DNA from: Gemmatimonadota bacterium
Lineage (GTDB): Bacteria; Gemmatimonadota; Gemmatimonadetes; Palauibacterales; Palauibacteraceae
Assembly (NCBI GenBank): GCA_046758745.1
Contig: JBHIAV010000002.1
Location: 32,001 to 96,000 of the forward strand
Direction: 5' to 3'
DNA: 64,000 bases
The notes beneath the pieces are model-generated. The model saw nothing but the letters and a program-made list of their open reading frames with translations, did not search any database and was not told the DNA's origin. Positions 8,921 to 48,737 of the stretch are shown piece by piece. Numbering within the stretch: position 1 is the first letter of the stretch; every line of letters begins with the position of its first letter. The translations under genes were made by a program, and so were the position numbers.

Positions 8921-9167
8921 CGGACAGCGGCTCCTGACCGACGCGAAGGGTCGCGGGACGGTGGGATGACCGCCGCGATAGGAGAGCTTCAGGTCCGGGC
9001 TTTGGCGGGGGGCACGACGCGGACTCGGCCCCTGCATCGCGCCGGCCGAAGCTCGGCCCATGCCACGGCGCCGAGCGCGGCCCGTGCCGCTCACGCGCCT
9101 GGGACCGCTCGGGAGCGCTCTCTCCCCGCGCTTGTGGCGCCCCGTCGCAGCCTCGCAGATTCACGGC

Positions 9168-10451
9168 ATGTCGCGCACTTGGGTCGCTGGTACGGCCTCC
9201 GCCCCCTCCACCGGGTTCCTCCGCGACTTCCAAGAGCTGGCGGAGGAGCTGCGGTCGCGTTTCCGGGCCTGGGAGAGGGCGCCGGAGCGGTGGAGCGAGG
9301 GGTTCTTCTCCGAGCTCGCGCTGCGCGCCTTCGATCTCCAGTTCCGCCGAAACGTTCCCTACCGCAGATTCTGTGAGGCTCGGGGGATTACGCCGAGCGG
9401 GGTGAGCTCGTGGAGAGAGATCCCGCCCGTGCCGACGGCCGCCTTCCGGGACGTGCCTCTGGTCGTCGGGTCACCCGAGGAAGCGGCGCTCGAGTTCGTG
9501 ACGAGCGGCACGACAGGCGGCCCGGAGCGACGGGGCCGGCACCTGGTTCGAGACCCGAAGCTCTACCGGGCTTCGCTGGAGGCTGCCTTTCGAGTCTTCG
9601 TTGTGCAGTCCGATAGTCGACTTAGAATGCTGCCTCTTCTCCCGCGCTTTACGAAGGAGCGCGCCTCGTCTCTCGGCTGGATGGTGGAGGCGGTCTGCCA
9701 GCGCTTCGGGGAGGGAGAGCCGCCGCTGCCCGCCGGGGCGGAAGGGTTGGATTGGAGTGTAGCGGACCTGGCGCTCACGGCGGCCCTGGAGAGCGGAGAG
9801 CCGCTGTGCATTCTGGCGACCACCCTGGCCGTCGATGAGTGGATGCGGCGGCTGGCGCGTGACGGTGTCACGGTGAGGCTCCCGGCCCGGTCACGGCTGA
9901 TGGACACCGGGGGCACCAAGGGACGGCCGGGCGTGGAGCGGGAGCGTGTCGCGCGGGAGGTGGAGGCGCGCCTCGGCATCGAGCCGCGCTGGATCCTCAA
10001 CGAGTTCGGGATGACCGAGCTCCTGTCGCAGCGCTACGCGACCCTCGAGGTGCCGGCCGGGGAGGCGGCGGCGGTGCGCGGAGCGGCTTCTGAAGCGGCG
10101 ACCGACGGCCCACCCCGACGCAGGGCCTCGGCCCGCGATCGGCCGGTGACCAGCGCGTGCGGGCCAGCCGCGATGGCCATCTTCGTCGAAGCGGGGCTGC
10201 TGTACGGTCCGCCGTGGCTGCGCACGCGCGTGCTCGACCCGGTGAGCCTGGCCGAGCTTCCTGAAGGGGAGACCGGGATCCTATGCCACTTCGACCTCGC
10301 AAATGCGGGAAGCGTGTGCGCGGTCCTCACCGAGGACCTCGGGCGGGTGAGAGACGGTGGCGTCGAATGGATGGGCCGGATGCCCGGGGCGGCGTCCCGA
10401 GGCTGCTCCCTCGCCACCGCAGAACTGCTCGCCGCGCAGCAGCGTGCTTGA
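9168..10451 (+). CDS. LuxE-like acyl-protein synthetase
   Basis: FVTSGTTG, MDTGGTKGR, NEFGMTELLSQ, DLANAGSV.AVLTEDLG, C-terminal RGCS acyl-acceptor motif. Confidence 0.85.
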   Translation: MSRTWVAGTASAPSTGFLRDFQELAEELRSRFRAWERAPERWSEGFFSELALRAFDLQFRRNVPYRRFCEARGITPSGVSSWREIPPVPTAAFRDVPLVVGSPEEAALEFVTSGTTGGPERRGRHLVRDPKLYRASLEAAFRVFVVQSDSRLRMLPLLPRFTKERASSLGWMVEAVCQRFGEGEPPLPAGAEGLDWSVADLALTAALESGEPLCILATTLAVDEWMRRLARDGVTVRLPARSRLMDTGGTKGRPGVERERVAREVEARLGIEPRWILNEFGMTELLSQRYATLEVPAGEAAAVRGAASEAATDGPPRRRASARDRPVTSACGPAAMAIFVEAGLLYGPPWLRTRVLDPVSLAELPEGETGILCHFDLANAGSVCAVLTEDLGRVRDGGVEWMGRMPGAASRGCSLATAELLAAQQRA

Positions 10452-11979
10452 TCTCTGGTACCTCCCCGGGTTCGAGACGGTGTGCGTGCCGGGCCCCGCG
10501 CCGGGACGGCCTGCGGAAGGGAGACGCCTGTCGAGGAGCTCGGCGGCATGGCACGTGGGCGCCGCAGCGGCCGGCGCGCCGTTCCGCTCGCCGCGCCTCA
10601 CCTCCGGGCAGGCGGCCAAGGTGGCGGAGATGGTGCGTGGTGCGGCACTCCAGGCACGCTCGGAGCGGCGAGTCGAGGAAGTCGTCCGCGCGATCGCGGC
10701 TGCTGCCGAACGGCTGGCGGATCCCGCGTCGGCGGAGGGTTCGGAGGCAGTGGCCCTCCTTGACGCCGAGCTGGGCTGGCCGGCTGAGCTGAGTTCCGAA
10801 ACGCTCGGCGGCATGGCGGACGGATGGACCGAGGAGGCGCTTCGCCGGCTGATCGAGTCCGAACTCGGCGACCTGCGCTACCTCGACGGCTTTCAGCCGG
10901 AGCCGCCGGGGGGCGCGGACCGTGCGGGAGATGGGGCGAACCGGGGTCGCTGGCGCCGGGCCGGCGGGCCCCCGCTCCTCTTCCAAGTACACGCCGGAAA
11001 CGTTCCCGGCGTGGCGATCACCGGCGTGATCCGCGGTCTCCTGGCGCGCTCCGGGGTGCTCGCCAAGCTCCCCGAGGACGAACCGGGTCTCCTGGTCCTC
11101 TTCGCCCGGGCCGTGGCCCGGCAGGATCCGCTCCTCGGACGGAGCATGGCCGCCACGTGGTGGCCCGGCTCCACGGATACGCCGGCCTGGGGTGAATGGG
11201 TAAAGCGTGCAGGCAAAGTCGTGGTGTACGGCGGAGAAGAGGCGGTTTCGGCGGTTCGCTCCCGGGTCACGGGAGGGGTGGAGGTGCTCGCCTATGGGCC
11301 CCGCGTGGGAGTCGCCGTCGTCTTCGCGGAGGGGCCCGCCTTCGGGGAGAGTGACGCGGCTACACGATCCGCCGCTCCGGGGGAGGACGCCCGACGATTG
11401 GCGCGGGACGTGTGCGCCTACGAGCAGCAGGGGTGCGTGTCGCCGCGCCTCGTCTATGTAGTGGGAGGGCCGGTGCGGCCGTTCGCCGCCCGTCTGGAGC
11501 GAGCCCTGGCGGAGGAAGTCGCCCGCATTCCGCGGCCGAGGGCCCGACCCGTCGATGCGGTGGCGATCCGCTCCATGCGAGCTGCGGCGGAGCTCCGTGG
11601 CTACGCGGAAGGGGGTGAAGAGGCGGCCGGAGGCGTGCTCGGCGCTCCGGAAGACCTCTCGTGGACGGTGGTGTGGTCGGAGAGACCGTCGATGTCGGGC
11701 GAGGCCCTCCCGCGCGTGGTCCATGTGTACCCGGCCCGTGACGTGAGCGAGCTGCTCGAGATCCTCTCGCCCCTGGAGGGTCGGATCCAGGCTGTCGGAT
11801 ACGCCGGCGGCGAAGGGTCCGCGGAGCTGGCCGCGCTCGCGGAGGGGGCAGCGAAACTCGGAGTGAGCCGGCTCACGCCCGTCGGCCGTATGGCCTGGCC
11901 TCCCGTCGACTGGCGCCACGACGGCCGCCATCAACTGCTCCCCCTCCTGCGGTGGACGGACTGGGAGTCCGCGGATTGA
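10444..11979 (+). CDS. LuxC-like acyl-CoA/acyl-protein reductase
   Basis: AGNVPG, VVYGGEEAV, YGPRVG, catalytic YEQQGCVSP, WRHDGR. Start overlaps the luxE-like stop. Confidence 0.85.
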   Translation: MLDLWYLPGFETVCVPGPAPGRPAEGRRLSRSSAAWHVGAAAAGAPFRSPRLTSGQAAKVAEMVRGAALQARSERRVEEVVRAIAAAAERLADPASAEGSEAVALLDAELGWPAELSSETLGGMADGWTEEALRRLIESELGDLRYLDGFQPEPPGGADRAGDGANRGRWRRAGGPPLLFQVHAGNVPGVAITGVIRGLLARSGVLAKLPEDEPGLLVLFARAVARQDPLLGRSMAATWWPGSTDTPAWGEWVKRAGKVVVYGGEEAVSAVRSRVTGGVEVLAYGPRVGVAVVFAEGPAFGESDAATRSAAPGEDARRLARDVCAYEQQGCVSPRLVYVVGGPVRPFAARLERALAEEVARIPRPRARPVDAVAIRSMRAAAELRGYAEGGEEAAGGVLGAPEDLSWTVVWSERPSMSGEALPRVVHVYPARDVSELLEILSPLEGRIQAVGYAGGEGSAELAALAEGAAKLGVSRLTPVGRMAWPPVDWRHDGRHQLLPLLRWTDWESAD

Positions 11980-19905: not shown

Positions 19906-20239
19906 CTTTCTCTCTCGCAGCCGCTGGGCCGCCGCCTCGGGTAGACCCGGGGAACGCGTTCGACCCTTGCTCCCGGCCGCGGGCTTGGCGGGCGCGCCGG
20001 GCCCGTTCCGCTGCTGCCGCGGCCGATGATAGCCCGTTCGGGAGCGGAGTCAATCGGCCGCCCGGCGGTTCACTTCACCGGATGAGAGCCGCGCGGGTGA
20101 GCGGCGGGACCGGCCGCGCTGCGCGGCGGCTGGCCGAGCAGCAAGACTGATGATAGACGGTTGATCGCCCTCCCGGATGGTGAGGGCAGTGGAGAGGGGG
20201 ATGCGGGTCGGGCGGCGAGGCTTCGCACCGGAAACGCTT

Positions 20240-23200
20240 ATGTACCATCTCCAGAGCTTCGGCGGCGTCGCTCTCACCGGTGGAGATGGCTCCAGCATCC
20301 GACTGCGCTCCCGGAAACACCTCGCGCTACTCCTCTTCCTGGTCGCGAACGGACGACGGGTGCACACGCGCCGCGAGCTCGCCTCGCTCCTGTGGGACAC
20401 TCCCCCCGGACGAGCGCGCCATTCGCTCAGCCAAGCGGTCTATGACCTGCGCTGCCGGCTCGACGGGATCATCCTTGGGTTCCCCGGGGAGGAGGTCCAG
20501 CTCGATTCAGGCCGAATCCGCTACGACGTCGACGAGCTTGAGCGAGCGGTCAAGGAGGGCAACCTCGGTCGAGCCGTTGAGTTGTACCGCGGCCCGTTTG
20601 CCACCAACCTCGACACCACCGGTACGGATGACTTCGAGCGGTGGCTCGAGACCGAGCGAGTGCGCCTCCAGCGGCTCGTTCACCTCTCGCTGCGTCGGTA
20701 CGTGAAGGAGTGCGACGCCCACGCCAAGTGGGGGGAGATGTGCGTGGCCGCTCTCAAGCTGGCCGACATGGATCCGCTGGACGAGGAGGCGCACCGTGCC
20801 CTAATGCGGGGCTTGTGGTTACATGGCGATCGCACCTCGGCCCTGCGCCACTACGAGGAGATCTCCGCCTTTCTGACAAGTGAGCTCCCCGGGGGGATCT
20901 CCAGCGAGACGCGGCAACTGGCCGAGCGGATCCGCCACGAGCCGGCCGAGGGGGCGACCATCGCTACGTCTGCCGCCGAGAACCGGCCGCCCCTCGTCGG
21001 CCGTGGGCAGGAATTCGAGTTCCTCAAGGACGCAGTTAGGGAGCTTCGCCGTGGTCGGGCGGGGACAGTGGTCGTGCAAGGTGAACCGGGGATCGGAAAG
21101 AGCAGGTTGATCCAGGAGTTCGTCCGCTCGGCATGCCTTGAGCCGATCCGCGTGCTTGAAAGCCGCTGCTACGCCGCTGAGAAGGACGTGCCGTACGGCC
21201 CGGTGGTCGATGGCCTGCGTCCGATCGCAGAACAGATGGCACGTACTCTCCCGAACGACGGCTGTCAATACACCCGGCTCGGTCACCTCTTCCAAGAGTT
21301 TGCGTCCTTCATGCAGCCGGAGATCGAGCACGGCGTCGATCCGAATGCCTGGCGCCGTCGACTGTACGAGGAGGTGGCCGATTTGGTGCGGAACGCCTCG
21401 GAGTGGGCACCAATCTTGTGGGTAGTGGAGGACATGCACTGGATGGATGCCACCTCCCGATCCTTACTCCACTACCTGTCACGGAGGTTGGCGGAGCGTC
21501 CCTTCATGCTGGTCATGACAGAGCGCGTCGGCAAGACGCATGTCGCTGTTCGTGCGCAACGGCGCAGACCGCCTCGTCCTGGGGAAACGATGGACCTCGT
21601 GCTGCCGCCGCTCACCGATTCCGAGATCGGGCAGCTCGTCGCCGAGGCTCTGCCCGAGGCGAAAGAGCACCCGGCGGTCGAGCTCGCACAGAAGCTGGCA
21701 GGGGGAAACCCGTTCTACGCGCTCGAGGTATTCCGGGCCGCATTCGCGTCGGCGGAGTGGATCGCCGAGGCCGACACCTGGGATCCCCTCACTGACGCAA
21801 GGTTGAGCGATGTCTTCGACATTCGCTTCCGGAACCTTCCGGACGGATCCCTTAGAATCCTGCGAGCCGTGTCCGTACTCGACCGCCACGCTACCCCCCG
21901 GCATGTCGCGGCCTTGGCCTCCCTGTCGCTGCAAGGAGCTGCCGACGTTTCCACCGAGCTGTACGAGCGCGGTCTTCTGGTTGACGGAGATTCCGAACTG
22001 GATTTCGTCAACGACATTGTGCGGGAGTACGTGTACAAGAGAATGAGCTCCATGCAGCGAGCAGCCCTGCACCTCGCTGCCGCGCAACAGCTCGATGGCG
22101 AGCCAGGAATCGGTGCGGCCACATTGGCCAGACATTACCATCTGGGCGACGACAAGCCGAATACCTTCAAGTGTGGGATGCAAGCCGCGACCGAGGCGAG
22201 CTCGTCGGGTGGCCATCTCGAGGCTGCCTCGATGGCCACTCTCGCTCTGGCTGCAGCGGGCGAGCGGGACGAGACCCTCAGGGCTTTGCGAATCCTGGCG
22301 AGCGCCGAGCTCCTATCAGCACAACTGAAATCGGCGCAGGAGCACTACTCTCGGATTCTCGACCTCGACACCGAGATGTCGCTCGAGGCGAGAATCGAGA
22401 CGAAGCTACACATCGTAGAGACGATGGCGGAACTGTCAGAGTGGGACGGAGGGCGGGAGTTGCTGAGCAGTCTCGCGGATGAGATTGAGAACATCCCTGA
22501 ACCTACGGTACAACTTCGAACCCGTGCGGAGACACTTTTCTGGAGCCTCAAGATTGCAATGCGCCAGAACGACTGTGAAGCCGCACGTGCAATTGCCTTG
22601 TCTGCACGTCGGCTCCGGGACACGGCAGTCACTGAGGGAACAGTCACCCCTGTTGCCGATGTCTCAGCGCTTTGCTGTGTAGCAGCCTACACCGCTTTCT
22701 TTGAAAACGCAGAAGATGCGCTTCAGCTCATTCAACTAGCTGAGAGGCGGATTGGGCTGATACCGGACTACTTGATCGAGAGGGTCCGACTCTTCAGTGG
22801 GATGGTCCGGCTACGGATGGCCCTATGGGATGAGGGGGAGCAGGATATCCTGGCGGCGATCGATCTGGCACGTAAACGTAAGGATCTAGTGCAGCTCAGT
22901 ACCCTATGGAACAACTTGGCTTGCTGCGCTCTCGAACAAGGCGACTGGGATCGTTTCGAAAAGACTGCATCTATGGCAGAATCTATTCAAGAGAAACTAC
23001 CAGTCCAGCTGGACGTTACGCTGCCATTGACGATCAATCGAGCTAACTCTCTCTTCTATCAGGGACATCCGCAGGCCGCAGGCAAGCTCTATAAGACCGC
23101 CCTCGATTCTGCGCTTGGCTTAGGATCTCGAGAGTTCGTACCTGAGCTGATGGCCTGCCGAGGACTGACCGCGCTACAGCTTGGCGATCGCGCAACAGCA

Positions 23201-23566
23201 GAAAAGATGTGGAACGGCGTCAAGGACTTGGACGCCGCGAAACTGGCAGGTGTCCAGGAACGGTTCAAGCTTGAATGGTTTCGGGGATATCACCTAAGGA
23301 ACGAAAGCTCCGCAGAGGCAGGTAGTCGGTTCTTCAAGGCTGCAGAAGAACAGGAGTTTCTCGACGTTCCAAGTTACTTGAAGATGCTGTGGCTCGGGTG
23401 CCTCTTGTTTCCGAAGTTGACTCGAGAGAGCCTGCGAGAAGCTGACCTGTTGGAACGTCTGAGGGCGGCGCGAATGTGGTGGTTCTCGAAGTTTGCCAAA
23501 CGTTGGCTCAGAGCAACGGACTACCACGCACGTCGCCTAAGCCGATTCCGCGGAGCGCGAAGCTAG
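20240..23566 (+). CDS. Large SARP-like transcriptional regulator: wHTH-BTAD, ATPase, TPR
   Basis: ELASLLW...ARHSLSQAVYDLR; DPLDEEAHRALMR (BTAD); LVGRGQE, Walker A GEPGIGKS, Walker B VVEDMHWMD, GGNPFY; helical TPR-like C-terminus. Start uncertain (20177, 20201 or 20240). Confidence 0.88.
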   Translation: MYHLQSFGGVALTGGDGSSIRLRSRKHLALLLFLVANGRRVHTRRELASLLWDTPPGRARHSLSQAVYDLRCRLDGIILGFPGEEVQLDSGRIRYDVDELERAVKEGNLGRAVELYRGPFATNLDTTGTDDFERWLETERVRLQRLVHLSLRRYVKECDAHAKWGEMCVAALKLADMDPLDEEAHRALMRGLWLHGDRTSALRHYEEISAFLTSELPGGISSETRQLAERIRHEPAEGATIATSAAENRPPLVGRGQEFEFLKDAVRELRRGRAGTVVVQGEPGIGKSRLIQEFVRSACLEPIRVLESRCYAAEKDVPYGPVVDGLRPIAEQMARTLPNDGCQYTRLGHLFQEFASFMQPEIEHGVDPNAWRRRLYEEVADLVRNASEWAPILWVVEDMHWMDATSRSLLHYLSRRLAERPFMLVMTERVGKTHVAVRAQRRRPPRPGETMDLVLPPLTDSEIGQLVAEALPEAKEHPAVELAQKLAGGNPFYALEVFRAAFASAEWIAEADTWDPLTDARLSDVFDIRFRNLPDGSLRILRAVSVLDRHATPRHVAALASLSLQGAADVSTELYERGLLVDGDSELDFVNDIVREYVYKRMSSMQRAALHLAAAQQLDGEPGIGAATLARHYHLGDDKPNTFKCGMQAATEASSSGGHLEAASMATLALAAAGERDETLRALRILASAELLSAQLKSAQEHYSRILDLDTEMSLEARIETKLHIVETMAELSEWDGGRELLSSLADEIENIPEPTVQLRTRAETLFWSLKIAMRQNDCEAARAIALSARRLRDTAVTEGTVTPVADVSALCCVAAYTAFFENAEDALQLIQLAERRIGLIPDYLIERVRLFSGMVRLRMALWDEGEQDILAAIDLARKRKDLVQLSTLWNNLACCALEQGDWDRFEKTASMAESIQEKLPVQLDVTLPLTINRANSLFYQGHPQAAGKLYKTALDSALGLGSREFVPELMACRGLTALQLGDRATAEKMWNGVKDLDAAKLAGVQERFKLEWFRGYHLRNESSAEAGSRFFKAAEEQEFLDVPSYLKMLWLGCLLFPKLTRESLREADLLERLRAARMWWFSKFAKRWLRATDYHARRLSRFRGARS

Positions 23567-24871
23567 ACCTCGCTTGGCAGCGAGGGACACTGGCTTGCTC
23601 GGGCCCACTAAGTCCTCAAGGATACCCGTCGCGACAACAACCGCCACGACCTTCGGGTCGAACTGCGTCCCACTGTGCTTCTGCAGTTCCTCGCGAACAA
23701 CCGTCACAGGAAGCGCCTCTCGATAGGGCCGTGCTGTGGTCATGGCGTCGATCGTATCGCAAACCATGATTATCCTTGCTCCGAGCGGTATTTCTTCCCT
23801 CGACAGTCCCGCAGGATAACCCTCCCCGTCGAAACGTTCGTGGTGGTGCCTTACACAGCGAAGTACCTCGCGGTGGATACTACGAATCGACTTGATGATG
23901 TCCACTCCCCGATCGGGGTGAGCGCGGATCAAATCTCGCTGTTCGGGCGTCAGAGGTCCTTTCTGTCGAAGGATCTCGCCATAGGCAACGTCGATCTTGC
24001 CGATATCGTGCAAAAGAGCGGCTGTTTCGATGATCTGTGCATATCGCGGCCTGAGTCTCAGCGCTCTGGCGATCCTGCTGGCTGCCTCCGCAACTCGGAT
24101 GGAATGACCCGACGTGTACGGATCCTGTGCTTCGATAGTCTTCACCATCAAGCGAAGCAGGTCTGTGTTCAACTGCTTCAGCTCGAAATTAATGCCATAG
24201 CTGTAGCGCAGGCCGATTAGCGGGATAATGGCCAGCAGCACGGCAATAGGTCCCCAGCGTGTGAAGGAAACGGCGACGAGATAGGCAAGAGGGCTCATGG
24301 CGATGTCAAAGATGATCAGACCGCCCGTAATATTTCTCCAAGCCTCGCGGTACGTGTGCCCTTCTGTAAGCGACACAACGTATGCGACGGTACCCGTGTT
24401 GACGGCGAAATAGGCTAGTACGGCCATGAGAAAGGGGGGAAACGTCTGACGAAAGTCGATGCTTTCCAGACTCTCGACGCCCCCAAACCACCTAAAAACC
24501 AGACTTGCCGCAGAGACAGCGAGGACGAGCTGGGCGGTATTGAACAGCTTCTTATAAAAAATCTTGTCGCGATAAAGAAGGAATTCCGAGAAAACCTCCG
24601 AGATGAGGGTGACTGTTACGGCACCGGAGGGTCCCAGGAGCAGAACGGCGCCCAGTTCAGGTATGAAGTCCATGGACGTGGTTGAGCCACTCTCTGAGAA
24701 CTTCAAGTATAGCATCATGCTGACGATGCTTAGCGCTAGGAGAGTTGCGAAAGCAACCACAAGATTGCTGGAAGAGGGGAGGGGGTAGCGCCAGAAAATA
24801 AAAGCTGCTGAGAACGCTGCCAGCGTCGCGGCGGCGTAGACTACAACGCGCAGGCGAGTGTCGATGGTCAT
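23537..24871 (-). CDS. Membrane-bound HD-GYP cyclic dinucleotide phosphodiesterase
   Basis: About 6-7 N-terminal TM helices; DPYTSGHS, LHDIGK, HHHERFDGEGYP, DAMTTARPYR all intact. Confidence 0.93.
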   Translation of the reverse strand: MTIDTRLRVVVYAAATLAAFSAAFIFWRYPLPSSSNLVVAFATLLALSIVSMMLYLKFSESGSTTSMDFIPELGAVLLLGPSGAVTVTLISEVFSEFLLYRDKIFYKKLFNTAQLVLAVSAASLVFRWFGGVESLESIDFRQTFPPFLMAVLAYFAVNTGTVAYVVSLTEGHTYREAWRNITGGLIIFDIAMSPLAYLVAVSFTRWGPIAVLLAIIPLIGLRYSYGINFELKQLNTDLLRLMVKTIEAQDPYTSGHSIRVAEAASRIARALRLRPRYAQIIETAALLHDIGKIDVAYGEILRQKGPLTPEQRDLIRAHPDRGVDIIKSIRSIHREVLRCVRHHHERFDGEGYPAGLSREEIPLGARIIMVCDTIDAMTTARPYREALPVTVVREELQKHSGTQFDPKVVAVVVATGILEDLVGPSKPVSLAAKRGLASRSAESA

Positions 24872-24897
24872 CTACTGAGGACCCCCAACCCCTGCTA

Positions 24898-24993
24898 TTA
24901 CCACCTGACCGTTCCACCCCAGCGGACCGTTCCACCCCAGCGGACCGTTCCGCCGAACAACCTGGCAAGCCAGTTGGTGCTGATCAGTAGCAT
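24898..24993 (-). CDS. Unannotated 31-aa peptide MLLISTNWLARLFGGTVRWGGTVRWGGTVRW (putative signalling-peptide precursor)
   Basis: SD AAAGGAGGTG at 25010-25001, 7 nt before the ATG; tandem stops TAA TAG; three 18-bp repeats that differ only at synonymous sites. Confidence 0.85.
   Translation of the reverse strand: MLLISTNWLARLFGGTVRWGGTVRWGGTVRW
24901..24954 (-). repeat. 3 x 18 bp coding repeat (GGTVRW)
   Basis: GGCGGAACGGTCCGCTGG / GGTGGAACGGTCCGCTGG / GGTGGAACGGTCAGGTGG on the minus strand. Confidence 0.95.
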
Positions 24994-25246
24994 CGAAGCT
25001 CACCTCCTTTCGAGTTGAAGACATACCCGTTCGCTACAGGGTATGCTTCGTCTCCGCTCGGAGGTCGCTCCGCTCAGCTCTCGGTGGCGAGCCGCAGAGA
25101 TTGGGGGTTCCTCTGGCTATCGCATCCCGGTCTATAGGTTTATCTGCGGCGCCAAAACGACTAAGCGCGCTGGGCCGCAAGGCTTCCCACAGTCGACCCA
25201 AGAAAGAAAAGCAATTGCAGGCCGCAACGCAACTGGGCGCCGGGGA

Positions 25247-25948
25247 TTACTTGTTCGCTATCCAGCGGTTGGTGGCGTGAAGGCAGGCCAGAACAGCCGC
25301 CTCCTCTGGCGAGTCCTGCACTCTGCCGATCCCGGCCAGGCAGACCGTGGTACGTCTGGCGTGGTCGTGAACGACAACCGCGAGCAGGCGACGTCCCAAA
25401 GCGTCGATCTGACTCACCCCCTCCAAAGAAAGGGAGGTCTTGTCCCCCGTGGCCTTCTGGATCGCCTGCAGAACAGCGTCGCAGGCGACCTCGAGGCGAG
25501 ACTTCGCGTAGTCGGGACCCTCGGCCTCTCCGACGTACTCGGTGTCGCCAGAGCGCAGCTGCACCCGGCAGGAGACCTGCTGACCCGTCTTGCGCTCGAT
25601 GTGGAATCCGTCTAGGAGGAAGCGTCTGGCGCCAGCCTGCGTCTCGGCCTCGGCCTCGGCCTCCGAGACCACGGGGATCTCGGGTCCCTTCAGCCTCGCG
25701 ACAGAGATCTTGCGGTGGTCTATCTGGAGGCCGAACTCCGCGAGGAGGGCCGATTCGATGTTGCGGACGATCTGTTTCGCCGAGAGGTCAGCGACGCTGA
25801 GCACGTGAATCTCATCGATGCCGCCATGCCCATCGGGCACGATCTTCAGGGAGCTCACCCCATCGAGACCCACCAGCAGCTTTTCGATCCGGCGCAAGCC
25901 CCAGGGATCCACGCCCCTTGCCGCCGGCTCTCCGGCCTCTCGGCTCAT
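25247..25948 (-). CDS. Hypothetical protein (EIHVL...KQIVRNIESAL...IDHRKIS; C-terminal part reminiscent of the LeuA allosteric domain)
   Basis: ATG at 25948 overlaps the DGC stop (ATGA). Natural globular composition in two domains joined by an EAEAEAE linker. Confidence 0.75.
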   Translation of the reverse strand: MSREAGEPAARGVDPWGLRRIEKLLVGLDGVSSLKIVPDGHGGIDEIHVLSVADLSAKQIVRNIESALLAEFGLQIDHRKISVARLKGPEIPVVSEAEAEAETQAGARRFLLDGFHIERKTGQQVSCRVQLRSGDTEYVGEAEGPDYAKSRLEVACDAVLQAIQKATGDKTSLSLEGVSQIDALGRRLLAVVVHDHARRTTVCLAGIGRVQDSPEEAAVLACLHATNRWIANK

Positions 25949-27675
25949 CGAACGAGCTTCCCTCCGATCGCGGGGTGTACAGTGTTGCCTCCGTGCGCCT
26001 TGGCAACATAGAGAGAGGCATCCGCCTCCGCCATCAGGGCCTCGCTCGTCAGAACGGACCGCGCCGCCCCTGAATGATAAGCGAGACCAATGCTTAGCGT
26101 AACCCCCGCCTCTCCCTGTGGCGTATGAACCCGGAAGGTCTCTGCCTGAGATCGAATCTCCTCGGCCACCCGCGCGGCGCCCTCGGGGTCGGCGTTTACG
26201 AGGATAAGAACGAACTCGTCGCCTCCGAAGCGACACGCGATGTCGGTGGCCCGGATGGCTCCTCTCAGGATATCGGCGACACCCCGCAGGATGTCGTTGC
26301 CGGCTGCGTGACCGAGCCGATCGTTGATCGGCTTGAAGTCATCCAGGTCGATGAACAAGACGGCGAGGGAGGTACCGCTCCGATTGGCGCGTGCCACCTC
26401 CTGAGCCAAGCGTTCCTCGAGTACCCGATACGTGAAGAGTCCGGTGAGGGCGTCATGCATGGCGTCGCGTGACGCCTGCTCGACCTGACGTCCCAGGTAG
26501 TAAGGGCAGATCGATAGGGTGGCCCGTCCTCGGGAGATGGCATCGGCGAAGTCGACGCACCTCGCGTGGCCGCAGGCCCCGCAATCCCAGTACGCACCGC
26601 CGGGAGCCCTTCCGATTCGCTCGAGCACGCGAGCCGCTTGCGCGGAGTCGGCCGGTGGAAGCGCCGCGGCATTCGGCTCGAAGGAGGCGCTGAGATCCAG
26701 AGCCGGCGGAACATCGACTACGGGCTCCCCGGAACGCCCGCCTTCCGCGAGCTCGGCGATCGCTTTGCGCCAGAAAAGGTCCTCATGCCGCCCGAAGGCG
26801 GGATGATCGAGGCTGCCCTCGAACGGTAGGACGTCGAGGAAGCCGAGTTCGCGTTCGCTGCTGACCACCGCTTGGGCGACGGCGCTCAGGGCGTGCAGGC
26901 CCCGGATCTTGCTGAACCGCCGCGATGAGAGGGACTCCTCCTCAAGCATGGCCAGCGGAAGCCCACCCGCGGTGGAGAGGTGACGGCGCCGCTCCGGCGG
27001 GATGCGCTCGAGCGTGAGGGGCTGCCTCTCCGGGTCCGCGCCCTTGTGGATCAAGAGATCCTTCAGCTCCTCGAAGGAGATGCATGCGCTGATACCCTGT
27101 TCGTCGCGGTCCGGCCCTGGAGTCGCCAGACCAGCGTAGATGATCCTGTATTCTGGCCCGTAATGGGTGCGAAGAAACCGACCGAGGGCAACGGCAGGCG
27201 TGACGATGGGCGCCAGGAAGGGCAGCAGGGCGGGGAGCCTGACTCGGCAGTAGTCGACCACGATGGAGCTGGTGGAGCGGATCCACGTCCTGGGGGAATC
27301 TTCCCGCCACAGGCGCAGATACTCGTGCGCCACCAGCTCATCGCCCAAGGTCTCAAAGTATACGCCGTGAAAGCCCGCCCGGAAGCAGGCGTTGATGATC
27401 TGCTCTGGCGTGGCCGGGTGGAAACTGACGGCCACTTCGGCCGGTAAGATGAGGATCGCCCGGTCCTTCTCGATGGCTTCCCGCACCTCCCGGATGTCAC
27501 CGACGACGTCGATAGCATCGTGGTGGCAGGCCGGAACGCAAAGGCCGCACTCGATGCACGTCTCCCCGACGATCCGCACCTCGTTCCCCGAAACGGCGAT
27601 CGCCTCGACGGGACAGACGCGGACGCAGGCCATGCACGCCGTGCAGTTGTCGTTGACCGAGAAGCTAAGGTTCAC
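25945..27675 (-). CDS. Diguanylate cyclase with 2[4Fe-4S] ferredoxin, degenerate [FeFe]-hydrogenase-like and FeS domains
   Basis: CTACMACVRVCP and CIECGLCVPAC; DCGACGHARC...CPYY; DLDDFKPINDRLGHAAGN; RATD I-site followed by RFGGDEF; ADASLYVAK. Confidence 0.9.
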   Translation of the reverse strand: MNLSFSVNDNCTACMACVRVCPVEAIAVSGNEVRIVGETCIECGLCVPACHHDAIDVVGDIREVREAIEKDRAILILPAEVAVSFHPATPEQIINACFRAGFHGVYFETLGDELVAHEYLRLWREDSPRTWIRSTSSIVVDYCRVRLPALLPFLAPIVTPAVALGRFLRTHYGPEYRIIYAGLATPGPDRDEQGISACISFEELKDLLIHKGADPERQPLTLERIPPERRRHLSTAGGLPLAMLEEESLSSRRFSKIRGLHALSAVAQAVVSSERELGFLDVLPFEGSLDHPAFGRHEDLFWRKAIAELAEGGRSGEPVVDVPPALDLSASFEPNAAALPPADSAQAARVLERIGRAPGGAYWDCGACGHARCVDFADAISRGRATLSICPYYLGRQVEQASRDAMHDALTGLFTYRVLEERLAQEVARANRSGTSLAVLFIDLDDFKPINDRLGHAAGNDILRGVADILRGAIRATDIACRFGGDEFVLILVNADPEGAARVAEEIRSQAETFRVHTPQGEAGVTLSIGLAYHSGAARSVLTSEALMAEADASLYVAKAHGGNTVHPAIGGKLVR

Positions 27676-27817
27676 GACTGCGTCCGCTCGGTGCGTGTAT
27701 CATGAAACGGCCCCGATCATGGCGGGTCCGAGGGCCTCTCCGGTGACCGGCGAGGGGTACAAGAAACATACCCGGGCCCAGGTCCCGTGGGAAGCGCGGA
27801 TCGGTCGTCGGGGTAGG

Positions 27818-27858
27818 AGTGTAACCACTGTAACGTGTTACTACAACGTACATTACGT
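27818..27858 (-). promoter_or_regulatory. Putative sigma70 promoter of the DGC operon with overlapping inverted repeats
   Basis: Minus strand TTGTAG (27846-27841), 17-nt spacer, TACACT (27823-27818). Palindromes GTAAC-gt-GTTAC (27830-27841) and ACGTA-cat-TACGT (27846-27858). Confidence 0.55.
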
Positions 27859-28107
27859 CCGTGTGGAAATCGTCGTCTGCTATTCCGGCAGACACGTCCG
27901 TGGAGCGGGTGGCCGACCTGTGGCGTCTGGACAACGGGACTCTGTGTCTCCCGAAGAGCGCCTTTCGCACCGAACCGGGCCCCTGAACCGGCCCCTGGGG
28001 GGCCCCTGGCACTCGCCCTCTCACGGGGCGGCGTGTAAGATGTGCACGGCAGAGGCGGCCGGTGCTAGCGCGCGGAGCGGTCGACGAACCTATCGGGATC
28101 AAGGGAG

Positions 28108-28407
28108 ATGGGTGGGTCTGCACTTCTCAAGAAACTGCTGTGGCGCCTCGACGGTGCCGCCGACAGCGCCAAGGTCGAATTCATCAGCGAGGCCGGCAAC
28201 CGATGGGAGGCTGAGTTGTCGCTTCACTCCGGTACCGATCCCCAGTCCCCCCGCCTCATGATACTGTTCCGGAACCGGTCCGCCCCGCACACATCGCAGC
28301 GCTACAATCTCGCGCCGATCGGGGTGTCCAAGGTCCCCCGTGAGGCGGCGAAACAGCTCAGTGAGGCGGAGCTTCGGGAGCTCCTCGCAACCTCCGTGGA
28401 GCTGTAG
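28108..28407 (+). CDS. Small hypothetical protein
   Basis: SD AGGGAG, natural composition, operon with tdk; ends [16 protein letters not shown]. Confidence 0.7.
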   Translation: MGGSALLKKLLWRLDGAADSAKVEFISEAGNRWEAELSLHSGTDPQSPRLMILFRNRSAPHTSQRYNLAPIGVSKVPREAAKQLSEAELRELLATSVEL

Positions 28408-28415
28408 GAAGCCCG

Positions 28416-28652
28416 GTGGCCCGGACGATCTACGATGACGGCCTCCTCAAGTGGGAGGTGTACGTCAGCGGCGGGCAGCCGAACTCGAAGGTGGCCGCCC
28501 GAATCTTCTTTCTCTGCCTCGACGCTCCGATGACGCCCGCCCGCTGTGTGCTACGGGAAGACGGCGACGTCGCCGCCGCCCAGCGAGCCATCATGGAAAT
28601 GAGCGACGATGATCTCAGAGAGCTGCTCGCAACGAGCGTCGAAGTCGGCTGA
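28416..28652 (+). CDS. Small hypothetical protein, probable paralogue of the upstream gene
   Basis: Ends [17 protein letters not shown]; tight spacing with both neighbours. Confidence 0.7.
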
Positions 28653-28657
28653 CGAGC

Positions 28658-29281
28658 ATGCCAGGGGACGGCCGCGAAGGCTGGATCGAGGTCATCACGG
28701 GCGTGATGTTCAGCGGAAAGTCCGAGGAGCTCCTCCGTCGAGTCCGCCGCGCCCTCATTGCGCGAAAGACCGTCCAGGTCTTCAAGTCCCATCTAGACGA
28801 CCGATACAGCGGAATCCAGACGATCAGCTCGCACGATGGGCGGACGATCGAAGCCGTGCCGACTTCCCACTCCCGCGACGTGGCGGAGCGAGTGAGTGAC
28901 GATACGCAGGTCGTCGCCATCGACGAGGTCCAGTTCCTCGACCCCGGCATCGTGACGGTCGTGAACAAGCTGGCGGACGAGGGAAGACGGGTAATCGTCT
29001 CTGGAACGGACATGGATTTCCGGGGGCTTCCCTTTGGGCCGGTCGGCGATCTGCTTGCCGTGGCCGAGCGGATCGACAAGCTGCACGCCATCTGCGTCGT
29101 GTGCGGGGAGCTCGCGACTCGCAACCAGCGCCTGATCGACGGGCGGCCCGCACCCGCCGAGGGGCCGACGATCCAGGTCGGGGGCGCGGAGTCGTACGAG
29201 GCCCGCTGTCGACGATGTCACGAGGTGCCGTCGGCCCTCGATGCTCAGATCCGACTCGTCGTGGAGGAGCAAGCTCCCTGA
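28658..29281 (+). CDS. tdk: Thymidine kinase
   Basis: [28 protein letters not shown], Zn motifs CVVCG and YEARCRRC. Confidence 0.97.
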
Positions 29282-29302
29282 GACGTCCGGGACGACGGTC
29301 CA

Positions 29303-30460
29303 CTACAGCGGGAAAGCGTGCACCGCCGTCGCCTTGATGGAGATGAAGACCCTGGTCCCGGGAGCGAGCCCGAGTTCCCTGCCGGCGGCTCGCGTGACCA
29401 CGGCGATCACTTCCGGCGGACCGTCCATCCGGACTCGCAGCAGGCCCCCGGCCTCGCGTACGTCGGCGACTACAGCGGCGAAGCGGTTTCGCGCGCTGCT
29501 CAGTCGAGCCGGCTGCTTCGACAAGAGGAGATCCTCTGGCCGGTAGGCGAGCTTCACGGCCGCTCCGCGGGTGGCGTTCCCGATCGCCCGGATCAGGACT
29601 CCGTCCACATCCACCTGCAACAGGCCGCCCTCTTCTCCCGCTACCGTACCCCGCAGCGACAGCTCGGCGCCCGTGGTCTCGGCGATGAAGGGATCGCGTG
29701 GGTCTTCGAAAAGCTCAGCCGGGGTGCCGACCTGGACAACCCGCCCCTCGCGGAGCACCGTCACCCGGTCGGCCAGATAGAACGCCTCGTTTCGATCGTG
29801 CGTCGCGAGGAGTGTGGCACGCCCCCGGCTTCGTGCAGCTCGCTCCAGATCCTCGCGCAGGAGGAGGCGAACCTCGGCGTCCAGGTTGGCCGTCGGCTCG
29901 TCGAGGAAGAGGACGTCGGGGTCGAGCGCGAGGGCCCGGGCGATCGCCACGCGCTGCATCTCGCCACCGGAGAGCGACCGGGCGTCGGCGTCGAGGAGAT
30001 GCTCGATGCCGAGCTGCCGCGCCGCTTCCTCGGCGCACATCCTCCGCTCGGCCGCCCTGGTGCGCCCGAGCCGAAGGCCGAGCTCCACGTTCCAGCCCAC
30101 GGACCCCGCCCACACATGCGGCCTCTGAAAGACGGCGGCGGAGGAGCGCCGGAGCGCCGCCTCGGCTCCGGCACCTGCCTCGCCCCGATAGCGCACGCTC
30201 CCCGACGCCGGGGACTCCAGCATCGCCAGGACCCGAAGGAGAGTCGATTTCCCGGCTCCGTTCGGTCCCAGCACGGCTAGGATCTCCCCCTCTCTCAGCC
30301 CGATCCGCTCGATGGCGAGCACCGGCCGGTCGCCGTAGCGCACCTCGATTCCCTCGCCCACGATGACCTCGTTCCAGGCGTCGTGGCGCGCGCGCGCGGA
30401 CGTCTCGCCGCGCAGTCGGCTGTAGAGCCGCGAAGGGTCGGCGGTGCGTGCGTCGGCCAT
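29303..30460 (-). CDS. tupC: Tungstate ABC transporter ATPase with TOBE domain
   Basis: GPNGAGKST, LSGGEMQRVAIARAL, LDEPT, C-terminal TOBE (IKATAVH). Confidence 0.8.
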   Translation of the reverse strand: MADARTADPSRLYSRLRGETSARARHDAWNEVIVGEGIEVRYGDRPVLAIERIGLREGEILAVLGPNGAGKSTLLRVLAMLESPASGSVRYRGEAGAGAEAALRRSSAAVFQRPHVWAGSVGWNVELGLRLGRTRAAERRMCAEEAARQLGIEHLLDADARSLSGGEMQRVAIARALALDPDVLFLDEPTANLDAEVRLLLREDLERAARSRGRATLLATHDRNEAFYLADRVTVLREGRVVQVGTPAELFEDPRDPFIAETTGAELSLRGTVAGEEGGLLQVDVDGVLIRAIGNATRGAAVKLAYRPEDLLLSKQPARLSSARNRFAAVVADVREAGGLLRVRMDGPPEVIAVVTRAAGRELGLAPGTRVFISIKATAVHAFPL

Positions 30461-31158
30461 CACGCGAGAAGCGGTCTCCGCAGCGTTCCGCGTCCGAGCA
30501 TGATGAGCACCAGGTTCACGCCGAACGCGATGAAGAGTAGGATGAAGCCGAGCGCGATCGCGACGCCGAAGTTCCCGCGCCGCGTCTCCAGCACGATCGT
30601 CGTGGTCATCACGCGGGTCTCGCCGAGGATATTGCCGCCGACGATCATGACTGCTCCCACCTCGCTGATGATCGCCCCGAAGCCGGCTGCCACGGCGGCG
30701 ACCATGGACCCCCTCACCTCCCGTAGGTGAAGCCACATGGCCTGCCAGCGCGTCGCGCCCAGGCTCCGCGCCTGGAGCCGCACGTCGGCGGGGACGCTCT
30801 CGACCGCGGCGAGGGTCACGGCCGCGATGTACGGACCCGCCAGGACCACCTGAGCGAGGACCATCGCGGTGGGTGAGTACAGGAGACCCAGGGGACCGAG
30901 CGGGCCGGCGCGGGAGAGGAGGAGGTACACGCCGAGACCTACCACGACGGGAGGAAGAGCCAGCCCCGTGTTCACCAGCGCCACGGCGGAGGTGCGGAGC
31001 CGGAAGCGGCCGAGCGCGACGGCGATCCCGATCGGAAGACCGATCAGCGTCGCGAGGAGGAGCGCCGTGCCCGAGATGGCTAGAGATCGGAGGACCACTT
31101 CGGCGACGTAGAGGTCCCCCGAAACGAGAAGATCCCACGCATCGCCGAAGGGGTTCAT
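30460..31158 (-). CDS. tupB: Tungstate ABC transporter permease
   Basis: NTGLALPPVVVGL, LSRAGPLG, FGAIISEVGAVMIVGGNI...TRVMTT.IVLETRRG. Confidence 0.9.
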   Translation of the reverse strand: MNPFGDAWDLLVSGDLYVAEVVLRSLAISGTALLLATLIGLPIGIAVALGRFRLRTSAVALVNTGLALPPVVVGLGVYLLLSRAGPLGPLGLLYSPTAMVLAQVVLAGPYIAAVTLAAVESVPADVRLQARSLGATRWQAMWLHLREVRGSMVAAVAAGFGAIISEVGAVMIVGGNILGETRVMTTTIVLETRRGNFGVAIALGFILLFIAFGVNLVLIMLGRGTLRRPLLA

Positions 31159-32003
31159 CGGGGCGTACGGCCCGGGGTACGCGGCAGCGGCGAAAAAAGT
31201 CCCACGCCGAACCGCTCCCGCCCGAAGGCGTCGATGCGCCGGATGCCCTCCGGCGAAGTGAGCCAGCGAGCGAAGGCGTGTGCCCCGTCGGCGTTCCCAG
31301 CGTCGCTCACCTCGATCACCGAATAGAAGTTCCGCAGGAGGGAGTCCCCCTCGACGAGGACCTCGAGGTCGAGCGACCGTCCCATGCCCACGAGCGTCGC
31401 GCGGTCGGTGAGCAGGTAGGCCCTCCGCTCGCTCGCCACCTGAAGGGTTGCGCCCATGCCCTGGCCGATCTCGCGGTACCAGGATCCCGACGGCTCCACT
31501 CCGGCGGCCTCCCACAGCTCGCGCTCCCGGAGGTGTGTCCCGGAGCCGTCCCCGCGCGAGACGAACAGCGTCTCGAGTCGGGCGATGGTGCGGAGCGCCG
31601 CCGCCGCGGATTCAGCGCCGCGGGCTCCTGCTGGATCCTCCGCCGGCCCGGCTATGACGAAGTCGTTGCGCATGAACGGAGTCCGGTCATGCCCGTAGCC
31701 GGCCTCGACGAATTCGCGCTCGGCCGCGGGCGCGTGTACCACCAGCACGTCGACGTCGCCCCGGCGGCCGAGAGCCAGGGCCTCCCCCGAACCGACGGCG
31801 ATCACCTTCACGGAGAGCTCCGGCTGGGCGGCCTCGAACGCGGGGATCAGCTCGTCGAACAGTCCGGAGTCGTGGACCGAGGTCGTGGCTCCGACGAGCA
31901 GGGGCCGAGGGCCGCCGCCGCACCCCACCGATGCGAGCGAGAGGAGCCCGAGGAGGAGCGGAGCGCAACGAGCTCGCGGCGGACCACGCCGCTTGCGCCT
32001 CAC
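31155..32003 (-). CDS. tupA: Tungstate ABC transporter substrate-binding lipoprotein
   Basis: ATTSVHDSGL, DVLVVHAP, NDFVIAGP, FVSRGDGSGTH, GQGMG, TDRAT; lipobox SVGC. Confidence 0.88.
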   Translation of the reverse strand: MRRKRRGPPRARCAPLLLGLLSLASVGCGGGPRPLLVGATTSVHDSGLFDELIPAFEAAQPELSVKVIAVGSGEALALGRRGDVDVLVVHAPAAEREFVEAGYGHDRTPFMRNDFVIAGPAEDPAGARGAESAAAALRTIARLETLFVSRGDGSGTHLRERELWEAAGVEPSGSWYREIGQGMGATLQVASERRAYLLTDRATLVGMGRSLDLEVLVEGDSLLRNFYSVIEVSDAGNADGAHAFARWLTSPEGIRRIDAFGRERFGVGLFSPLPRTPGRTPR

Positions 32004-33262
32004 CCGTACCGGATCCAGCGAACCAGCTCCGGAACGTTGGGCCGCTTCCCTTTCATCAGGATCCCGACTCGGTATATGCGACCGGCGAGCCACGCCGCCC
32101 CGAAGACGGAGGCGATGAGCAGAGCCACGGAGGCGGCTACCTGCCGCGCGTCGACGTTCCCGACCGTGAGGCGCACCAGCATGAGGATCGGGCTGAAGAA
32201 CGGAACGAGCGACACCGTGACGGCCCAGGCAGCGTCGGGGTTGTCGATCACGCCCGGGAGGATCATCACCGGGATCACCAGGGGGATGACGAACGGGAGC
32301 ATGACCTGTTGGATGTCCTGTTCGCTCCCGAGCATCGCGCCGGCCGCGGCGAAGAGACCCGCGTACAACAGGTAGCCGAGGACGAAGTAGACGAGGGCCA
32401 TGACGGCCAGCCCAATGGGGAAGCGGAAACCGGCGAGGTCGATGCCGAGCCTGGCCAGGGCGGGACCTGCACCCGCCAGGGCGTACAGGGCGAAGGCGGC
32501 GAGCATGAGGGCCCAGATCGCCACCTGGGTGAGCCCGACGCCGCCCACCCCCACGATCTTCCCAAGCATCATCTCCCGCGGCCGGACGCTCGACACCATG
32601 ATCTCGACGATGTCCGAGGTCTTCTCCTCCTGCACCCCCCGGGTGATCATCTGGCCGTAAACCAGGAACATCATATACAGGATCATCGCCATGGTGAAGC
32701 CGAGCACCTGGTAGGCTTCCTCCGACCCACCGCGTCCCTCGCGCAGGTCCTGCACCTCCAGTTCCGCGCCCCTCAGCAGCTCCTCGACGTCCACCGATGT
32801 GACACCCCGCGCCGAAAGCTCCGAGATGAGAATCGCCTCGTGAACGGCCGTTTCCAACCGGCTCCGGGCCGACATTCCGAGACTTCCGAGGGTGAAGATG
32901 GTGACCGCGTGCGACTCGAGCACGTCGGGAGGCACGAGCAGATAGAGATCGAAGTCCTCGGCCTCAAGGTGCGCCGCCAACTCCCGGTTCGACAGATCCC
33001 GACCGGCCGGGAGCGGGATCCCATCCATCTGCTGTGTATGGAGGGTCTCCGCGAGGCGCAGCGCCGCGCGTCCCTCCGCGTGGTCGAGGATCCCGACACG
33101 GAGGATGTCGCCGCCTTCCTCGTCCTCAAGGAGCAGGGCGGGCAGGAGAATCGCTCCGCCCATGAGGAGCGGGACGAAGATCGTGGTGAAGAGGAACCAG
33201 CGGCTGCGGACGCGCTGCACGTATTCTCGGCGGATGATCGCGCGTGCTCGACGATTCAGCAT
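32000..33262 (-). CDS. ABC-2/NatB-like exporter permease
   Basis: IIRREYVQRVRSRWF, VQEEKTSDIVEIMVSSV, MLGKIVG, PFFSPILM, YRVGILMKGK. Confidence 0.9.
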   Translation of the reverse strand: MLNRRARAIIRREYVQRVRSRWFLFTTIFVPLLMGGAILLPALLLEDEEGGDILRVGILDHAEGRAALRLAETLHTQQMDGIPLPAGRDLSNRELAAHLEAEDFDLYLLVPPDVLESHAVTIFTLGSLGMSARSRLETAVHEAILISELSARGVTSVDVEELLRGAELEVQDLREGRGGSEEAYQVLGFTMAMILYMMFLVYGQMITRGVQEEKTSDIVEIMVSSVRPREMMLGKIVGVGGVGLTQVAIWALMLAAFALYALAGAGPALARLGIDLAGFRFPIGLAVMALVYFVLGYLLYAGLFAAAGAMLGSEQDIQQVMLPFVIPLVIPVMILPGVIDNPDAAWAVTVSLVPFFSPILMLVRLTVGNVDARQVAASVALLIASVFGAAWLAGRIYRVGILMKGKRPNVPELVRWIRYG

Positions 33263-48706: not shown

Positions 48707-48737
48707 CCGCCCGCTCGCGCCGCCGCGTGTCGGCCGA

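Follow-up and report, generated by a model that had tools for sequence, protein, structure and literature searches.

We found that a 64-kb stretch of a Gemmatimonadota genome (64,000 nucleotides; GenBank assembly GCA_046758745.1, contig JBHIAV010000002.1, positions 32,001 to 96,000 of the forward strand; hereafter the window) encodes a diguanylate cyclase that carries the sensor part of an [FeFe]-hydrogenase without the cysteines that hold the H-cluster. The gene lies at 25945..27675 on the minus strand, starts with GTG and encodes 576 amino acids, with an N-terminus that agrees with those of its homologues. Judged from its sequence, the product is a cytoplasmic diguanylate cyclase with an input module descended from a GGDEF-linked sensory [FeFe]-hydrogenase. 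All four ligand cysteines are replaced, so the protein is predicted to be unable to hold an H-cluster, and on this evidence H2 sensing through such a cluster is excluded. The protein fails the test that defines a hydrogenase, the presence of H-cluster ligands, and should not be filed as one. Nor is it a one-off, since hydrogenase-derived cyclases without an H-cluster form a large family in the Gemmatimonadota.

A preliminary description of this stretch had assigned the protein the domain order of sensory [FeFe]-hydrogenases, namely two [4Fe-4S] clusters, a hydrogenase core, an FeS domain and an output domain. Searches with the models for Fer4, Fe_hyd_lg_C, PF04060 and GGDEF recovered all four modules, each above its Pfam gathering cut-off (all coordinates of the gene are on the minus strand). 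The N-terminal ferredoxin-like domain (residues 5-57; 27505..27663) contains two CxxCxxCxxxCP motifs and matched the Fer4 families of Pfam, with a Fer4-type dicluster domain at residues 8-55. It is followed by the homologue of the hydrogenase H-domain that lacks H-cluster ligands (residues 58-345; 26641..27504), which was characterized by Pfam, hhalign, AlphaFold2 (AF2), Foldseek and dN/dS. Fe_hyd_lg_C aligned with residues 84-218 (E 4.6e-9, 36.7 bits, cut-off 22.1) and covered only positions 22-171 of the 245 in the profile, so that 135 residues of the H-domain reach the Pfam model and the remainder is recognised only by profile and fold comparison. The NCBIfam model for monomeric [FeFe]-hydrogenases, TIGR04105, matched residues 16-245 below threshold (E 1.8e-26, 92.8 bits against a cut-off of 450).

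The C-terminal Fe-S domain (residues 363-392; 26500..26589) carries the motif C365-x2-C368-x4-C373-x16-C390 and matched PF04060 at residues 364-392 (E 3.2e-8). A short helix (residues 391-407; 26455..26505), placed from the sequence and from the AF2 model, which ends with helix 391-399, leads from the last cluster cysteine into the GGDEF domain (residues 405-564; 25984..26463). This domain is full length (E 4.8e-40, profile positions 1-160 of 161), scored 153 bits with TIGR00254 against a cut-off of 37.4, and matched solved diguanylate cyclases at E 7e-29, the best being the GGDEF domain of DosC (4zve_A, E 6.9e-29). The sequence contains the GGDEF motif (residues 484-488; 26212-26226) and, five residues upstream of it, an RxxD I-site, RATD (residues 475-478; 26242-26253). 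From these motifs the cyclase domain looks competent. The protein has 16 cysteines: all eight of the ferredoxin domain (C11, 14, 17, 21 and C40, 43, 46, 50), the four of the C-terminal motif, C97, C143 and C198 in the central domain, and C481 in the GGDEF domain. The accessory Fe-S ligands, the GGDEF motif and the I-site are therefore intact, as had been proposed. Two [4Fe-4S] motifs and a Cx2Cx4Cx16C motif flanking an H-domain are the architecture given for sensory group C/D hydrogenases in a passage of PMC8163306.

The H-cluster positions were mapped onto relatives by a MAFFT alignment and by hhalign profile-profile alignment, which were in agreement. At the first motif (L1; residues 133-137, 27265..27279) relatives read (S/T)xCP and the window protein reads RSTSS, with S136 at the [4Fe-4S]H ligand cysteine. 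At the second (L2; residues 180-187, 27115..27138) GPCxAKK of relatives corresponds to AGLATPG within YAGLATPG, placing A184 at the cysteine and G187 at the lysine or arginine of relatives; an alternative placement of this cysteine at L183 was rejected because both alignments put it at A184. At the third (L3; residues 281-292, 26800..26835) relatives read D/E-x-L-x-C-x(1-2)-G-C-x-x-G-P and the window protein reads DVLPFEGSLDHP, in which LPFEGS aligns with xxC(x1-2)GC, so that F285 and S288 stand at the two cysteines; hhalign places a one-residue gap after S288 at the last ligand position. The strings quoted at these sites in the preliminary description do align with L1 to L3. None of the residues S136, A184, F285 and S288 is cysteine, and this agrees with its proposal that the protein senses something other than H2.

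Its statement that all three motifs lack cysteine needs one correction. All four ligands are indeed gone, but the first cysteine of TSCCP is not a missing ligand in this group: a passage of PMC8163306 reports that it is already not conserved in group C/D sensory hydrogenases, and thus only the second counts as lost. Among 99 aligned sequences (the window protein, P0001, and 98 representatives of at least 440 amino acids from the 150 listed), CC occurs at the TSCCP position in only three. All four cysteines are present in 91 of these 99, one is kept in P0125, and none is found in seven (P0001, P0122, P0123, P0124, P0127, P0129 and P0132). In active hydrogenases the lysine that follows the L2 cysteine (PCxxK) helps to hold the diiron site. 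A lysine or arginine stands at +3 or +4 after this cysteine in 73 of the 92 sequences with a cysteine in the scanned L2 segment, where the window protein has G187. No gene for HydE, HydF, HydG or another hydrogenase was found among the open reading frames of the window.

A phmmer search of residues 58-397 against the PDB found no hydrogenase and returned three weak matches of corrinoid iron-sulfur protein (CFeSP) to the Cx2Cx4Cx16C motif (E 0.12-0.67), because the central domain is too diverged for a single-sequence search to reach solved hydrogenases. When residues 58-400 were compared with 1.84 billion representative proteins we obtained 1003 matches at E <= 1e-3, and 50 of the more distant ones were scanned against Pfam. 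Fe_hyd_lg_C was found in 46 of the 50 (E 2e-17 to 3e-59), nearly all of which also carry Fer4 and PF04060 domains. Their outputs were GGDEF in 15, HisKA/HATPase in 17, sigma-54 AAA+ in 5, and PAS or none recognised in 9; whichever output is fused (GGDEF, HisKA, sigma-54 AAA+ or PAS), the PF04060 domain directly precedes it.

Profiles of 50 family members and of 16 Cys-bearing PAS-type relatives aligned by hhalign over 398 columns (residues 5-402) with a probability of 100% and E 5.2e-59. One of these relatives, P0260, carries TSCCP, PCIAKK and ACKGGCITGP and matches solved hydrogenases directly (HDCR HydA2, E 1.6e-25; CpI, E 1.9e-17). The full-length family profile itself reaches TmHydABC alpha at E 3.5e-14, ranked behind GGDEF matches, and a sensor-only profile, built from 9 sequences that included several frameshifted fragments, was dominated by ferredoxins, reached TmHydABC alpha only at E 6e-8 and so could not be used to map single residues. 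An AF2 model of residues 1-400 had a mean predicted local distance difference test score (pLDDT) of 94.1 and a predicted template modelling score (pTM) of 0.92. In the PDB, Foldseek found 74 matches to this model (E <= 1e-3), and the best 45 were all [FeFe]-hydrogenases (DdH, CbA5H, TmHydABC, HDCR and CpI; E 3e-13 to 6e-10, TMq 0.52-0.64, 360-450 aligned columns). On these alignments we regard the homology of the sensor module to Cys-bearing sensory hydrogenase relatives as certain, and the idea of a repurposed hydrogenase scaffold put forward earlier is partly supported.

The other four of the 50 distant matches belong to a separate divergent group (P0187, P0190, P0205, P0209, P0216, P0231, P0232, P0239, P0241, P0245, P0252, P0254, P0257, P0258, P0263 and P0271). 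Three of the four had no Pfam family and P0205 had only a weak Fe_hyd_lg_C match (E 2.9e-7). Members of this group are 31-37% identical to the H-domain, lack a ferredoxin or PF04060 domain, and have the motifs QCSCP, GRCPGA and GCxCSG.

A search of 5.8 billion clustered proteins for the family gave 914 matches. The best 120 listed, the window's own entry (100%) aside, are 54-74% identical to the sensor part; all 120 have PF02906 and PF04060 and 117 have GGDEF, the three without it being fragments of 386-450 amino acids. Where a source name is given for these 120 it is 'diguanylate cyclase', from metagenome-assembled genomes of Gemmatimonadota. We counted residues at the former ligand positions in P0001 and 119 of the best 120 (n = 120). 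Serine occupies position 136 in 117 of these, with N in the other 3; at position 184 we counted 96 G, 21 H and 1 A; position 285 is invariably F; and at position 288 there are 80 N, 23 A and 7 G. R133, T135, D281, H291 and P292 are invariant, and 105 of the 343 positions in residues 58-400 are conserved at 95% or more. In the window's clade the replacement motifs WxRSTSPxVV, YAGxGAPG and GFxDxLPFEGxLxHP are near-invariant. Many database entries of 561-562 amino acids (P0010, P0013, P0026 and others) begin at the internal Met of CMAC and lack the first two cluster cysteines; these are start-codon miscalls, since the DNA encodes both cysteines in 62 of 63 readable loci.

A scan of one genome per species yielded 65 loci, titled Gemmatimonadota in 62 cases, 'uncultured bacterium' in two and Akkermansiaceae in one. 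The last (L060) has the same thymidine-kinase and orfX neighbours and its cyclase is nested deep in the Gemmatimonadota clade; the contig is probably misbinned. All eight ferredoxin cysteines are encoded in 62 of 63 readable loci, C368, C373 and C390 in 64 of 64, and C365 in 41 of 64, while the GGDEF motif was found in all 63 and RxxD in all 64 readable loci. Among 42 sequences of the window's clade, the Nei-Gojobori method put the median dN/dS, roughly, at 0.19 in the ferredoxin domain, 0.30 in the H-domain, 0.29 in the Fe-S domain and 0.26 in GGDEF. Purifying selection acts on the H-domain, which is as constrained as the catalytic domain; the module is being maintained and is not decaying.

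The H-cluster cysteines occur in three states across the 65 loci. All four are kept in five loci (L041, L043, L054, L061 and L062), only the L2 cysteine is kept in three (L042, L057 and L064), and the rest keep none. The 4-Cys proteins read RSTCP at L1, YAGVC(L/I)xxG at L2 and DILPCEGCLDHP at L3, and the 1-Cys proteins read RSTDP, YAGxCPxxG and DILS(Y/H)EGxLDHP. The 0-Cys state takes two forms, with RSTDP, YAGV(V/A)xP and DLLS(R/F)EGSLDHP in one clade (clade A) and RSTSP, YAGxGAPG and DxLPFEGxLxHP in the window's clade.

A tree of the loci was built from 62 Gemmatimonadota rows and 7 Cys-bearing GGDEF-type outgroups (quick IQ-TREE, SH-aLRT support); four truncated loci (L024, L027, L030 and L047) were left out. 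The Gemmatimonadota proteins formed a single clade with support 100 on a stem of 1.73. In clade A (17 rows, support 97) the five 4-Cys rows are sister to a group of twelve, made up of three 1-Cys and nine 0-Cys rows (support 99). The window protein belongs to clade B (45 rows, support 95), in which every row is 0-Cys. On this tree the 0-Cys state requires two changes, and supported branches force both. The outgroups are 4-Cys, and since it is implausible that four ligands were regained, the H-cluster cysteines must, on this tree, have been lost completely and independently at least twice within the Gemmatimonadota. The tree of cluster representatives agrees, with the 0-Cys rows on one side of a branch of support 94, inside a clade that also holds P0125 and P0126 (support 100, stem 1.16). 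The 4-Cys forms of the phylum are already without lysine or arginine after the L2 cysteine ('YAGVCLADG'), which suggests that the diiron subsite was lost before the cysteine ligands.

The neighbourhood of the gene was compared across the same loci. The next gene downstream, which we call orfX (25247..25948, minus strand; 233 amino acids, unannotated), has an ATG that overlaps the cyclase stop codon (ATGA), and from this arrangement it is translationally coupled to the cyclase gene. By tblastn, orfX directly follows the cyclase in 55 of the 65 loci at 36-62% identity, most of the others ending too soon to tell, and in many loci its start is the last base of the cyclase match. A further 375 nt downstream of orfX, on the same strand as the cyclase, is a gene (23537..24871) for a MASE9 membrane domain (E 1.3e-9) joined to an HD-GYP-type phosphodiesterase (HD_5, E 7.5e-35) with its motifs present (HD at residue 288, HHE, and GYP at residue 351). 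A homologue of this HD-GYP gene lies 1-2 kb downstream of the cyclase on the same strand in 25 of the 30 loci whose downstream flank is 2500 nt or longer. The pairing persists in clades of 48-52% identity, where upstream synteny is lost; a thymidine kinase gene lies within 3 kb upstream in only 19 of 53 loci. Judged by this gene order, the cyclase is in a conserved operon with a gene for a phosphodiesterase of cyclic di-GMP (c-di-GMP).

Three of the 4-Cys orthologues carry both orfX and the HD-GYP gene, and the latter is present in most sufficiently flanked loci of each of the three cysteine states. We tentatively propose, at somewhat less than even confidence, that the Gemmatimonadota have kept a stepwise 4-, 1- and 0-Cys series within a conserved cyclase-orfX neighbourhood, in which the H-cluster of a sensory [FeFe]-hydrogenase disappeared on two or more occasions and selection on the signalling pathway continued.

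In searches with orfX we found no Pfam or NCBIfam family, and an Atlas search returned unnamed Gemmatimonadota clusters only. In its AF2 model (pLDDT 85.3, pTM 0.55) a disordered linker (residues 89-106) joins a small alpha/beta domain at the N-terminus to a double beta-beta-beta-alpha unit at the C-terminus. The latter is similar to the regulatory domain that binds amino acids in LeuA and citramalate synthase (3hps_B, E 1.3e-6; 3f6g_B, TMt 0.56 over 130 columns), a modelled likeness that we take as a lead only.

The reading that best fits these data, to which we give about an even chance, is that the remaining Fe-S clusters sense redox state or O2/NO and thereby set cyclase activity, with the dead H-domain as scaffold. 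The three remaining cluster sites would bind [4Fe-4S] clusters, and the H-domain would be a rigid scaffold that places the N-terminal 2x[4Fe-4S] domain beside the C-terminal Cx2Cx4Cx16C domain. In passages of PMC13104023, an AF2 model of the sensory hydrogenase TamHydS places the C-terminal cluster domain beside the N-terminal clusters; a wire between the two would then not need the H-cluster. A low-potential electron pool, or damage by O2/NO, would set the redox state or integrity of the clusters. C390, as the last ligand, would stand at the beginning of the helix leading into the GGDEF domain, and this helix could act as a signalling stalk, so that cluster state would alter helix and dimer geometry and with them c-di-GMP synthesis. 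The I-site would limit output, the neighbouring MASE9-HD-GYP enzyme would degrade the product, and orfX would be a regulator or effector of the cyclase/HD-GYP pair.

Several points weigh against this reading. As reported in the passages of PMC13104023 cited above, H2 produced no response in the C-terminal cluster of TamHydS, and the authors of that study doubt that signalling proceeds by a redox change of that cluster. The first cysteine of the C-terminal motif (C365; 26575-26589, residues 363-367) is replaced by T, S or R in 23 of the 64 loci and 91 of the 120 listed proteins, so four-cysteine ligation of this cluster is not a constant of the family. H370 is present wherever C365 is missing (23 of 23 loci, 90 of 91 proteins), and such proteins may have a C-terminal cluster held by three cysteines and a histidine; the association itself proves nothing, because both traits are phylogenetically nested. 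The alignment given to AF2 contained 89 more distant relatives, 87 of them with all four cysteines, which may pull the model towards the hydrogenase fold. Finally, dS is near saturation in this high-GC genome and makes the dN/dS values approximate.

It is unlikely, in our estimate, that the Fe-S clusters and the H-domain are structural only and that the cyclase is controlled by its partners, orfX and the HD-GYP enzyme, together with product inhibition at the I-site. The ATGA overlap and the position of orfX in 55 of 65 loci would fit such control, as would the regulatory-domain fold in the C-terminal half of orfX and an I-site that is intact in all 64 readable loci. Keeping three cluster sites and a module of 340 residues merely for stability would be costly, however, and the same module is fused to many outputs in relatives, as one would expect if it were an input domain. 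For orfX, the match in fold has a TMq of only 0.33-0.40.

We consider it quite improbable that remodelling has turned the old H-cluster pocket into a binding site for a new small molecule or metal, which would itself be the signal. In the window's clade the replacement motifs hardly vary, and the long stem that leads to it (1.16 to 1.73 changes per site) is followed by purifying selection, a pattern that a new binding site could produce. The residues at the ligand positions are small or hydrophobic (S; G/A/H; F/Y; N/A/S), which fits the filling of a cavity better than a ligand shell, and the independently Cys-less clade uses D, A/V, F/Y/R and S at the same positions, with no convergent new site. 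Moreover, R133, T135, D281 and H291 are also found in the 4-Cys orthologues, so they are not replacements for lost ligands. Continued H2 sensing through an H-cluster held by non-cysteine ligands is close to refuted: only the kept fold and ancestry speak for it, and it would have to accommodate the absence of all four cysteines, a glycine in place of the basic residue common after the L2 cysteine, and a 64-kb window without HydE, HydF or HydG genes.

The protein shares module order, homology over 398 columns and fold with the putative sensory [FeFe]-hydrogenases of groups C and D (TmHydS and TamHydS; M2f and M2e). Those proteins bind an H-cluster and turn over H2, whereas the window protein lacks all four ligand cysteines, and its output is GGDEF where theirs is PAS (group C) or none (group D). 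The Cys-bearing GGDEF-linked relatives (for example P0145, P0155, P0157, P0160, P0170, P0183 and P0198) and the 4-Cys Gemmatimonadota orthologues have the full architecture including GGDEF and differ from the window protein in keeping the four cysteines; the 4-Cys orthologues also share the orfX operon with the window locus and, in three cases, the HD-GYP gene. The haem sensor cyclase DosC likewise places a redox/gas cofactor domain before GGDEF, with a globin haem there and Fe-S clusters on a hydrogenase scaffold here, so that sensor cofactor and fold are unrelated. We infer that the window protein works like a cofactor-based sensor cyclase and has its ancestry with the group C/D sensory hydrogenases.

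Eukaryotic Nar1/NARF/CIAO3 are also [FeFe]-hydrogenase homologues without H2 chemistry, according to passages of PMC8924675 and PMC12621388. In the latter, Nar1 is described as keeping two [4Fe-4S] sites, including the H-site cubane ligands, and as acting in cytosolic Fe-S assembly. The window protein, unlike these, is a bacterial signalling enzyme and lacks the H-site ligands. The review passage (PMC8924675) mentions no homologue other than NARF that has lost H2 function. We found no description of a GGDEF-linked or H-cluster-less bacterial hydrogenase form in the literature searched, a search that had most subscription journals and supplements outside its scope.

How group C/D hydrogenases transmit their signal, and what their C-terminal cluster does, are treated as open questions in passages of PMC8163306 and PMC13104023. 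The family described here is a natural case in which the H-cluster site has been deleted and the accessory cluster sites, output and operon kept under selection, which separates the two parts of the sensor, and the 4-, 1- and 0-Cys orthologues of one phylum allow a side-by-side comparison. If the series is read correctly, the accessory Fe-S relay and not H2 chemistry may be the working sensor of the Gemmatimonadota branch, and this could also be true of some proteins that currently bear the label 'sensory hydrogenases'; the case would also parallel, in bacteria, how eukaryotic Nar1/NARF arose. The c-di-GMP signalling network would gain an Fe-S-based type of input. Hundreds of these proteins are already present in databases as 'diguanylate cyclase', and Fe_hyd_lg_C matches in Gemmatimonadota should not be counted as hydrogenases in metagenome surveys.

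Other features of the region were also noted. A terminator-like hairpin lies just after orfX (25212..25235, minus strand), found by a consensus scan only, which returned 10 sites against 4.1 expected. Two open reading frames were rejected as spurious: one upstream of the cyclase (27665-28123, minus strand) has a counterpart in none of the 65 loci, and one at 25043-25615 (plus strand) is an antisense shadow of orfX. An Rfam scan of 22000-30000 found no riboswitch or other RNA family, with one match at chance level (E 0.93). The G+C content is 0.57-0.60 at 20001-26000 of the window against about 0.68-0.70 elsewhere; this dip spans a BTAD/AAA_16/TPR regulator gene (20177-23566) and the HD-GYP gene, though both are syntenic in related genomes. 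Upstream of the cyclase, a set of ABC transporter genes (29303-32093, minus strand) encodes a permease, a PBP_like_2 binding protein and an ATPase that carries a TOBE domain; the set resembles transporters of the molybdate/tungstate type and is syntenic in 16-22 loci. Farther away, at 9060-11979 (plus strand) and 47387-48907 (minus strand), are LuxE-like and LuxC-like genes (acyl-protein synthetase and acyl-CoA reductase) and a multihaem cytochrome-like gene.

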